From the NCBI RefSeq assembly GCF_055900595.2, contig NZ_CM148325.1: a stretch of 64,000 bases of DNA, one strand, 5' to 3'. Below, piece after piece: positions 10,888-12,722 of this stretch (position 1 is the first letter of the stretch; the number at the start of each line of letters is the position of its first letter). Made by a program: the position numbers and the translations under genes. The notes beneath the pieces were generated by a model. It had not been told where the DNA came from and made no database searches. It saw nothing but the letters and a program-made list of their open reading frames with translations.

Positions 10888-12459
10888 ATGAATGTGGAAA
10901 AATTTGACTGGACAGAAGAGTTACATCAGACCATGGTGAAGAGCCTGGTTACATCATTCGGGCTGGATTTTCTGTTGTTAAATGATCGTAAGGGTGGTGA
11001 TGTTGACACTATCCATAATGTGCGTAATGGCATTTATGCCACGGAGGCTGAGCGACAGCGGTATGAAGGTCGTGGCGACTATGATTCTCATCATTACCAC
11101 AGCCATGAGAACTACATCGCGACGAACCGGAAAGGAAAGCGTGCACATCAGGCAGGGACTCTTACTGATGCATATACAGGCGAAGTGTTTGCTTCAGACG
11201 ATAAAAAAAATCTGGATCATATTATTTCCGCTAAAGAAATTCATGATGATCCGGGGAGAATTCTTGCTGAACGGGATGGTGCAGAACTGGCAAATGACGC
11301 TTCAAATCTGGCATTCACACATGAGTCGCTCAATAAATCAAAGAGAGCTGACTCCATGGATGCGTTTATTTGCACACTGCAGAAAAACAGAGAAGATACG
11401 TTAAAGCAGATAGCAGAGCTTGAATCTCAGGCAACGCTGACAGAAAAAGAAAGGAAACGTCTGATAAGTCTGAGAAAAAAAGCTGATGCAGATACTGAGC
11501 GTATGGAAAGGGCTGATAAATATGCCCGGGAAAAATACGAGGCCACGATTAATCAGAGCTATTACCTGAGTAGTAAGTTTGCTACTGCTGTCGCCAGTGC
11601 TTCACTTAATTCCGGTTTTCGTATGGGGACGCGACAGATGCTGGGGCTTATTCTTGCCGAGATCTGGTTCGAACTGAGGGAACGAATCCCGCATATTATC
11701 AGGCAGCAACGGAACTCATTCAGTGCCGGCAAATGTCTGTCCGAAATAACGTCAGCATTACGTGTCTGCCAGAAACGAGTACAGGAAAAATTCAGTTCTT
11801 TTTTAATTGCCTTTAAAGATGGAGTCATCGGAGGGATACTGTCAGGTATTACCACAACGCTGTTAAATATATTCCTGACAACGGAAAGAATGAGTGTCCG
11901 GCTTATCAGGGAAATGTGGAACAACCTCGTTCAGGCCTTTAAAGTCCTGGTATTTAACCCGGAGGGATTATCGCCGGGGCAGTTAGCCAAAGCGGTCACT
12001 AAACTGATAGCAGCAGGTGTGGCTGTTGCCGGTGGGGTGATGATAAATGAGGCGATGGCGCAGATCCTTATTTTTCCATTTGGTTCAGAGCTTGCTGCCT
12101 TTTGTGGTGCGCTGACGACAGGTATTCTCGGGCTGGTGATGAATTATTATCTCGAATATAGCGAGGTTATGCAGCGGGTATGGGCATTTCTGGACAAATT
12201 TAAGGACAAATTCCAGCGGTCACTGGAATACTTTCAGGCAGTCAATGCTGAACTTGATCGCTATCTTGTGGAACTTACTGCACTGGAATTTTCTGTTGAT
12301 GCTGCCGCGTTAAATCATTTTTCACTTCATCTGGATAGCGTAAACAGTGAGATAGAGCGCGGACTTCTGCTGAGAGAAGAAGTCAGCCGACGAGGGATTG
12401 CGTTGCCGTTTGAGTCAGGAAATGTGGCTTCTGTTCGTGACTGGTTAAATAAGCGATGA
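10888..12459 (+). CDS. Two-domain protein: N-terminal HNH-like (His-Me finger) nuclease motif lacking zinc-ligand cysteines, plus C-terminal coiled-coil and transmembrane segments
   Basis: 523-aa ORF; residues about 95-155 read YTGEVF…NLDHIISAKEIHDD…DASNLAFTHESLNKSK, matching the HNH pattern (DHIxP … NLxxLCxxC[NH]xxK) with Cys replaced; C-terminal third has Gly-rich hydrophobic helices (GVIGGILSGITTTLLNIFL; LIAAGVAVAGGVMINEAMAQILIFPFGSELAAFCGALTTGILGLVMNYY). Confidence 0.7.
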   Translation: MNVEKFDWTEELHQTMVKSLVTSFGLDFLLLNDRKGGDVDTIHNVRNGIYATEAERQRYEGRGDYDSHHYHSHENYIATNRKGKRAHQAGTLTDAYTGEVFASDDKKNLDHIISAKEIHDDPGRILAERDGAELANDASNLAFTHESLNKSKRADSMDAFICTLQKNREDTLKQIAELESQATLTEKERKRLISLRKKADADTERMERADKYAREKYEATINQSYYLSSKFATAVASASLNSGFRMGTRQMLGLILAEIWFELRERIPHIIRQQRNSFSAGKCLSEITSALRVCQKRVQEKFSSFLIAFKDGVIGGILSGITTTLLNIFLTTERMSVRLIREMWNNLVQAFKVLVFNPEGLSPGQLAKAVTKLIAAGVAVAGGVMINEAMAQILIFPFGSELAAFCGALTTGILGLVMNYYLEYSEVMQRVWAFLDKFKDKFQRSLEYFQAVNAELDRYLVELTALEFSVDAAALNHFSLHLDSVNSEIERGLLLREEVSRRGIALPFESGNVASVRDWLNKR

Positions 12460-12722
12460 AATTACACCCTCCATTTCCCTGTAACCAGTGTGGGGCCTGT
12501 TGTCGTCATGTCAACAGGGCGGGTGAAACGCAATGTCTGGATCGTGGTGACGGTATTTGCCGTCACTATCAGACTGATTCTCATTTGTGTGCAATTTATG
12601 ATAAACGCCCACAGATTTGCCGGGTTGAAGACCAGTATTTACTGAATTATCAGTCTCAGTACAGCTGGCAGGAGTTTATTGCATTAAACCAGGCCGCCTG
12701 CCTTATTCTGAATAAACTGTAA
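12456..12722 (+). CDS. YkgJ-family cysteine-cluster protein (putative zinc/iron-chelating domain)
   Basis: 88-aa ORF with CNQCGACC motif plus four more Cys; start codon overlaps the stop of the preceding gene (ATGA), indicating translational coupling. Confidence 0.7.
   Translation: MKLHPPFPCNQCGACCRHVNRAGETQCLDRGDGICRHYQTDSHLCAIYDKRPQICRVEDQYLLNYQSQYSWQEFIALNQAACLILNKL

Follow-up and report, generated by a model that had tools for sequence, protein, structure and literature searches.

A minimal eight-cysteine CxxCxxCC protein as the predicted co-translated partner of an HNH-like membrane protein in a WYL-headed candidate defence cassette

The window analysed here is a stretch of 64,000 nucleotides (nt) from contig NZ_CM148325.1 (NCBI RefSeq assembly GCF_055900595.2). 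It carries a cassette of four genes on the plus strand (Table 1). A helix-turn-helix (HTH) regulator with a WYL domain heads the cassette. A glycine-zipper membrane protein, a large HNH-like membrane protein and a small YkgJ-like cysteine-cluster protein of 88 amino acids (aa) follow. This last protein is the subject of the present work. A preliminary description of the sequence had placed an 88-aa open reading frame (ORF) with the motif CNQCGACC at 12456-12722, and we find it there. Judging by the sequence comparisons presented below, the small gene has a fixed place as the probable co-translated partner of the HNH-like gene, without exception among the intact loci that we examined.

Table 1. 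Coordinates of the cassette genes, of the features of the surrounding island and of example phage copies.
Feature	Position	Strand	Evidence
HTH-WYL transcriptional regulator, cassette head	8817..9713	+	PADLOC WYL models, 9.1e-21 and 1.4e-19
359-aa glycine-zipper membrane protein, PDC-M09A-like	9762..10841	+	PADLOC, 5.4e-22
523-aa HNH-like membrane protein, PDC-M40B	10888..12459	+	PADLOC, 4.6e-42, profile positions 19-436 of 547
ATGA overlap of the stop of the 523-aa gene and the start of the YkgJ-like gene (coupling junction)	12456..12459	+	Sequence
YkgJ-like minimal CxxCxxCC cysteine-cluster protein, 88 aa	12456..12722	+	ATG start; PF03692 match, invariant Cys
Tyrosine integrase of the cassette-bearing island	16447..17667	-	ORF; RefSeq annotation of identical locus
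tRNA-Phe, island integration site	17814..17889	-	ARAGORN; RefSeq, adjoins dsbD and cutA
Example phage copy, locus L097	5995-6288		IMG/VR
Example phage copy, locus L101	5998-6246		IMG/VR
Example phage copy, locus L112	5989-6375		IMG/VR
Example phage copy, locus L119	5986-6246		IMG/VR

The N-terminus of the small protein is MKLHPPFPCNQCGACC. The protein contains nine cysteines, at positions C9, C12, C15, C16, C27, C35, C45, C55 and C82. The preliminary description had counted four cysteines beyond the motif. There are five (C27, C35, C45, C55 and C82). The motif itself, C9-N-Q-C12-G-A-C15-C16, is kept in 81/81 homologues. C27 is confined to the E. coli lineage, and the eight other cysteines were all invariant in a first alignment of 29 homologues. 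Among the 81 copies found in cassettes, C9, C12, C15, C16, C35, C45 and C55 are present in every one and C82 in 80. Likewise, Y48, R51 and P52 are invariant in these copies, whose length ranges from 74 to 107 aa.

A short ORF of this kind could be spurious, or a hitch-hiker with no role in the cassette. Its annotation record is in line with that view. Of 60 complete RefSeq E. coli genomes, evenly sampled among those that carry the gene (97-100% identity), 58 have no annotation for it, and its Pfam score is low. In the other two it is called 'YkgJ family cysteine cluster protein', the name that RefSeq gives it in some genomes (WP_000766272.1), and records with identical DNA differ in annotation. 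In plasmid records (e.g. CP052287.1 and NZ_CP041389.1) the gene is usually annotated. However, a representative library holds 586 clusters that match at E<1e-10. Moreover, the position, the frame and the eight cysteines are conserved across five phyla, which rules this explanation out and leaves it practically no credence. The small gene is real and strongly constrained, as far as sequence conservation can tell.

We examined 80 loci with a homologue of the 523-aa protein, drawn from a one-genome-per-species collection, together with an alignment of 16 homologues of this protein. A profile of the small protein detects an ORF directly downstream of the large gene in 75 of them. Two of the exceptions (L019 and L041) are ends at contig edges, so that the count is 75 of 78 informative loci. 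The pair occurs in Pseudomonadota, Bacillota, Bacteroidota and Spirochaetota, and also in Desulfovibrio, which makes five phyla. The taxa include Gamma-, Beta- and Alphaproteobacteria, Clostridia, Lactobacillales, Paenibacillaceae, Veillonella, Treponema, Desulfovibrio and Bacteroidales. The gene order differs among groups (L010-L089). In Proteobacteria, the glycine-zipper gene precedes the HNH-like and YkgJ-like genes. In Bacillota, Bacteroidota, Spirochaetota and Desulfovibrio, it follows them. The large and small genes are adjacent under both orders. The glycine-zipper gene neighbours the HNH-like gene in nearly all 80 loci, and a WYL gene is close to the cassette in the majority. The copies from Bacillota, Bacteroidota and Pseudomonas receive the same PADLOC assignments as the window, and again none for the small protein. 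The preliminary description had named two findings that would refute it: no PF03692 match, or absence of the gene from homologous loci without effect. Here, the gene is present in essentially all the intact loci, and a PF03692 match exists (see below).

The start of the small gene lies within the stop of the large one. The junction reads AAG CGA TGA AAT, in which the start codon of the small gene, ATG (12456-12458), shares bases with the stop codon of the upstream ORF, TGA (12457-12459). The preliminary description had pointed out this ATGA overlap. We observe it as well, and the tight junction is conserved across the 75 loci. The start stands in the ATGA or GTGA position (4-nt overlap) in 38/75 loci, and in the TAATG or TGATG arrangement (1-nt overlap) in 19/75. 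The remaining junctions consist of longer possible overlaps (8), gaps of 1-10 nt (9) and one locus with a frameshifted upstream gene. The overlap type depends on the group: mostly 4-nt ATGA/GTGA in Proteobacteria and mostly 1-nt TAATG/TGATG in the other phyla. Our scoring took the start nearest to the stop, which favours tight junctions. Even so, with gaps of 10 nt at most, an intergenic region would not fit in any of the 75 loci.

We also counted sites complementary to the anti-Shine-Dalgarno sequence, with an upper limit of -5 kcal/mol. There is no Shine-Dalgarno enrichment before the small gene (13%, against 15% at random sites inside the large gene). The genes overlap or are separated by at most 10 nt, and the small gene lacks a Shine-Dalgarno signal. 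Its product is therefore probably made by ribosomes that have just ended the large protein. By comparison of the loci, translational coupling is well supported, and the pattern fits termination-reinitiation.

The three exceptions other than the contig edges all have a broken or degenerate HNH-like gene. In L065, the large gene is broken and the small gene has an in-frame stop. In L072, the large gene is broken and the small gene is gone. In L053, the large gene is of full length and has lost the invariant residues H43, H73, N75 and Y76. It is the sole case of intact length without the small gene. This pattern would be expected if the small gene encoded an antitoxin-like immunity protein, since the effector would not be kept alone. 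Such a protein would neutralise the nuclease/membrane protein until infection removes or inactivates it, for instance by oxidation of its cluster or loss of its metal. The small size and the co-translation with the putative effector suit this role, and a redox-labile iron-sulphur (Fe-S) cluster, as in the FliB protein discussed below, is a plausible trigger. However, the gene is downstream of the supposed toxin and presumably dependent on its translation, whereas most type II modules have the opposite arrangement. Transcriptional control is already encoded in the cassette by the WYL regulator gene. The stand-alone phage copies in packaging modules and the fusion to a GIY-YIG-type region, both described below, do not fit an antitoxin, and M09-type cassettes occur both with and without the small protein. 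We consider the antitoxin role unlikely.

The partner of the small protein has an N-terminal domain with a His-Me/HNH-like motif. In the 16-homologue alignment, this motif comprises D110-H111, followed by N136, N140, N149 and K152. The AlphaFold2 (AF2) model of the domain has predicted local distance difference test (pLDDT) values of 80-92. After this domain come a coiled coil, moderately hydrophobic helices rich in Gly and Ala (residues ~305-425) and a conserved C-terminal tail. Pfam gives GmrSD_C, at E=0.18 only. RefSeq and nr widely name it 'cobalamin adenosyltransferase' or 'ATP--cob(I)alamin adenosyltransferase'. No profile search backs this name, and we reject it as a mislabel.

The PADLOC assignments of the cassette are mixed. 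The candidates that this resource labels PDC were nominated by their embedding within known systems (PMC12881386). At E<=0.01, none of the four cassette proteins matches M40A, and the 359-aa protein that accompanies the M40B protein matches M09A instead. Likewise, PADLOC finds no M09B in the window, though M09A is present. No PADLOC model matches the 88-aa protein, even at E<=10. Thus, the cassette combines components filed under two candidates, PDC-M40 and PDC-M09, and the models of both miss the YkgJ-like protein. The product of the first gene is a 'helix-turn-helix transcriptional regulator' in RefSeq.

The preliminary description had also located the small gene at the end of the operon. 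This holds for the proteobacterial gene order only, and our scan finds no terminator-like site after 12722. A small hydrophobic ORF at 12775-13059 (a 65-aa version in RefSeq) and a phosphoethanolamine transferase gene at 13125-14798 follow on the plus strand, with no terminator-like site between them. Both are absent from the Shewanella copy of the cassette, so they probably lie outside it. Upstream of the cassette, on the minus strand, there is a gene of the H-NS family (6966-7340). The RefSeq annotation of the identical locus marks it as frameshifted.

The preliminary description had classed the small protein as YkgJ/CxxCxxCC-type. The Pfam search gave a match to PF03692, although a weak one (i-Evalue 1.1e-3, 20.1 bits, residues 8-65), and the eight cysteines are conserved. 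Other members of the subfamily reach E-values down to 2.7e-8, and precomputed PF03692 matches are on record for most homologues. An orthologue of YcgN was considered and rejected. The scores are 18.8 bits for NCBIfam NF003504 and 17.6 bits for NF003507, where the cut-offs are 150 and 170. The NCBIfam and Pfam matches are limited to the cysteine core. Neither Foldseek, run with the small protein's AF2 model against the Protein Data Bank (PDB), nor a profile search of the PDB sequences returned a match.

PF03692 includes YkgJ, YcgN and YeiW (UPF0153, COG0727) and is described as a 'putative zinc- or iron-chelating domain'. The 88-aa protein has in common with it the elements CxxCGxCC, DG-x-C and C-x-IY-x-x-RP-x-x-C-R, and a distal cysteine. 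Compared with typical members, it is much shorter and consists of the cysteine core alone. The small proteins form a subfamily of their own, tied to the mobile cassette and to phage packaging modules. The 88-aa protein can be described as the CxxCxxCC (YkgJ/YcgN/FliB/DpdM) superfamily reduced to its eight-cysteine core.

Two relatives are informative about the cysteines. FliB, which methylates lysines of flagellin in Salmonella, has eight conserved cysteines, and those of its motif, CX4CX3CC, bear an oxygen-sensitive [4Fe-4S] cluster (PMC8598068). The 88-aa protein is likewise rich in cysteine, and its conserved cysteines are also eight. However, FliB is a large enzyme with a defined substrate, and our protein has no flagellar context. 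The second relative is DpdM (DUF3109), a phage homologue of YkgJ that methylates preQ1 in DNA (PMC10516641). Its model presents two four-cysteine pockets. One is formed by three cysteines of the motif and a distal cysteine, and the other by the fourth cysteine of the motif and three cysteines about 10 residues apart (PMC10516641). The small protein shares the C-x9-C-x9-C spacing and the distal cysteine, that is, the proposed two-pocket layout for metals. DpdM differs in being considerably longer (cysteines are cited up to position 222) and in its place in 7-deazaguanine pathways, of which there are no genes here. By analogy, we infer two four-cysteine metal sites in the 88-aa protein: C9, C12 and C15 with C82, and C16 with C35, C45 and C55. 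These eight cysteines would hold two metal centres, of Fe-S and/or zinc. Such centres have been proposed for DpdM, and for FliB there is partial demonstration.

The same relatives raise the possibility of a catalytic Fe-S enzyme. A metal-dependent group transfer would, for example, mark self DNA or modify the partner, and the HNH-like domain would act on unmarked targets. Both characterised relatives are methyltransferases with the same cysteine layout, and DpdM acts on DNA in phages. Phage copies of the small protein beside the terminase could act on DNA during packaging. However, the regions beyond the cysteine core that form substrate or donor sites in FliB and DpdM are absent from the 88-aa protein, and the cassette proteins of 74-107 aa lack the proposed substrate and donor grooves. 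Nor does the cassette contain any module resembling a methyl-donor-binding one. Because the protein holds little beyond the two pockets, an enzymatic role is less likely than a structural, regulatory or DNA-handling one. We regard catalysis as improbable.

The small protein also has relatives in uncultivated phages. A scan of IMG/VR with the small-protein alignment gave 58 loci (L092-L149), and 56 of them have a stand-alone homologue. None of the 58 viral contigs carries an HNH-like, glycine-zipper or WYL gene of the cassette. The 47 distinct phage copies keep seven cysteines invariant, together with Y48, R51 and P52, and 43 of them also have the C82 position. Their identity to the nearest cassette copy is 35-56%, which matches the closeness of cassette copies to one another. 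The phage genes are found directly upstream of the terminase large subunit (TerL) of phrog_6681 (2.9e-171 and 9.4e-173) or directly downstream of the TerL of phrog_2. Other neighbours are the portal gene (phrog_156) and the genes of the head protease and major head protein. At one locus, L101, the YkgJ-like gene stands between TerL and an HNH homing endonuclease. PHROGs has no family that contains the small protein, and tblastn with three queries found no match in cultured phage genomes.

HNH accessory endonucleases are known to adjoin phage terminases, for example gp74 of HK97. The arrangement at L101 echoes the HNH/YkgJ pairing of the cassette, although it is a single locus with no known functional link.

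Another explanation would be a sensor or decoy that has its origin in a packaging protein of phages. In this case, the copy in the cassette would mimic its phage homologue, engage the terminase, the portal or the DNA being packaged, and activate the membrane nuclease. Alternatively, the phage copies would inhibit the cassette. The stand-alone state of the phage genes, their conserved cysteines, their closeness to cassette copies and their position next to the genes for TerL, the portal, the head protease and the major head protein are all consistent with this. However, the argument is one of gene neighbourhood, and neither a cultured phage nor a PHROG family has the protein. A shared biochemical function, for instance as an accessory in DNA handling, could also account for the homology. 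We think that a sensor or decoy is rather improbable.

Some relatives are longer (L090 463-1086, P0257; L091 6001-6702, P0216; and P0197, P0243 and P0285). One of metagenomic origin is fused to a region like the N-terminus of UvrC, the site of the GIY-YIG domain (NCBIfam E=8.8e-5). Among the others, two have a C-terminal domain of ~150 aa, one a weak TerB-like tail and one a tandem duplication of the cysteine module. In a metagenomic M09-type locus beside Kiwa (KwaA/KwaB), the small protein is extended to 233 aa. The UvrC-region fusion, the TerL neighbours and the one HNH homing endonuclease neighbour link the small protein to nucleases in other settings too.

The cassette is mobile and frequent. 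In the window it lies in an island whose bounds are the tyrosine integrase gene and tRNA-Phe. E. coli chromosomes, among them that of APEC O2-211, match the 4.1-kb stretch at 8700-12800 with 100% identity, and the stretch was found in 444/5426 complete genomes. It is common: about 7% of complete E. coli genomes carry the cassette, as do Klebsiella plasmids and many other phyla. The small gene is present in 382 E. coli genomes and the HNH-like gene in 383. The small gene (267 bp) is at least 99% identical in 372/382 genomes. The 1.57-kb large gene reaches this level in 20/383, and most copies are at 95-99%. This contrast suggests that the small gene is more strongly constrained or that a boundary of recombination lies here. 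The cassette also occurs on 42 plasmids, ten of them conjugative. Of the 42, 25 are from Klebsiella, and the others come from Photobacterium, Cupriavidus, Acetobacter and other hosts.

The surroundings of several copies contain defence genes. In Shewanella xiamenensis, the same four genes with the same overlap are beside DarT/Macro, a KwaA-like gene and an integrase. The neighbours of the Acinetobacter copy are GmrSD, a type I restriction-modification system and NgoFVII. Three of ten sampled large flanking proteins match PADLOC models. WYL regulators of defence loci include BrxR and CapW. An HTH-WYL gene likewise heads the window cassette, and the PADLOC models that it matches are labelled as CRISPR-Cas associated. 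It differs from those systems in its genes, which encode membrane proteins and a cysteine-cluster protein and not BREX, CBASS or CRISPR components. This context supports the mobile WYL-headed unit as a candidate defence cassette, and no more.

Taken together, we favour the following reading, with a confidence a little better than even. The small gene is the third structural gene of a WYL-headed mobile cassette, and its product would be a two-metal, obligate partner of the nuclease-bearing protein within an anti-phage module. The small protein would bind the nuclease-bearing membrane protein. It may then restrain the nuclease domain or target it to DNA. The cassette would act as an anti-phage or abortive-infection module under the control of the WYL regulator.

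Several observations weigh against this reading. Profile and fold searches give no confirmation that the 523-aa protein is a nuclease. The AF2 model of the small protein, built from the 29-sequence alignment, is poor (pLDDT 66). Only the three flanking proteins mentioned above match PADLOC, and one of them is a helicase of UvrD type (GajB/RTasHel models) that is possibly housekeeping. The searched literature contains no published test of PDC-M09, PDC-M40 or the cassette. Other points come from the M09-type sister cassettes. In Acinetobacter, the closest homologues of the small protein (55% identity) belong to cassettes with the gene order WYL, PDC-M09B, a 278-aa protein, PDC-M09A and the YkgJ-like gene. 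This variant has no HNH-like protein, and the small gene follows the glycine-zipper gene. In the M09-type cassettes of Pasteurella and Vibrio cholerae, a six-frame scan finds no small gene. Since the small protein is present in M09-type cassettes that lack the HNH-like protein, and stands alone in phages, it is not strictly an HNH accessory.

A tie to the glycine-zipper protein alone was considered and rejected. The M09-type cassettes of Pasteurella and Vibrio lack the small gene, and every intact HNH-type cassette has it. In the loci compared, then, the small protein is obligatory with the HNH-like protein and optional in the M09-type sister cassette. The middle gene of the sister cassette encodes 222-278 aa with a faint TerB signal (L150-L155, L008 and L091). 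The Neisseria locus has the M09B gene and, at its edge, a fragment of a glycine-zipper gene; the two are separated by genes for an EcoRV-type endonuclease and a methylase and by an IS1595 element. Pfam searches with the M09B protein, the middle gene and the C-terminal extensions of the fused copies gave no significant domain.

The gene content of the cassette has practical consequences. Both large proteins are already listed as defence candidates, and the third gene is missed by current models and by most annotations. Therefore, experiments that clone the annotated genes only could miss an activity or give a misleading result. Should the cassette be a defence system, a metal-cluster subunit would join the components known so far, and the phage homologues next to terminase and portal genes would offer a direct lead to its trigger or to a counter-defence. 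A more specific proposal, to which we give a small chance, is that the cassette copy recognises the packaging machinery or DNA ends of phages and activates or aims the membrane-anchored nuclease. The phage copies would be its evolutionary source or counter-defence mimics. If this proposal is true, the cassette would count as a new defence system whose sensor subunit carries a metal cluster, and the smallest branch of the YkgJ superfamily would have its first function. The searched literature holds no paper on the small protein. The CxxCxxCC/YkgJ superfamily is large, yet the characterised members found here are two, FliB and DpdM. This subfamily offers a tractable version of 88 residues with a fixed genetic partner.

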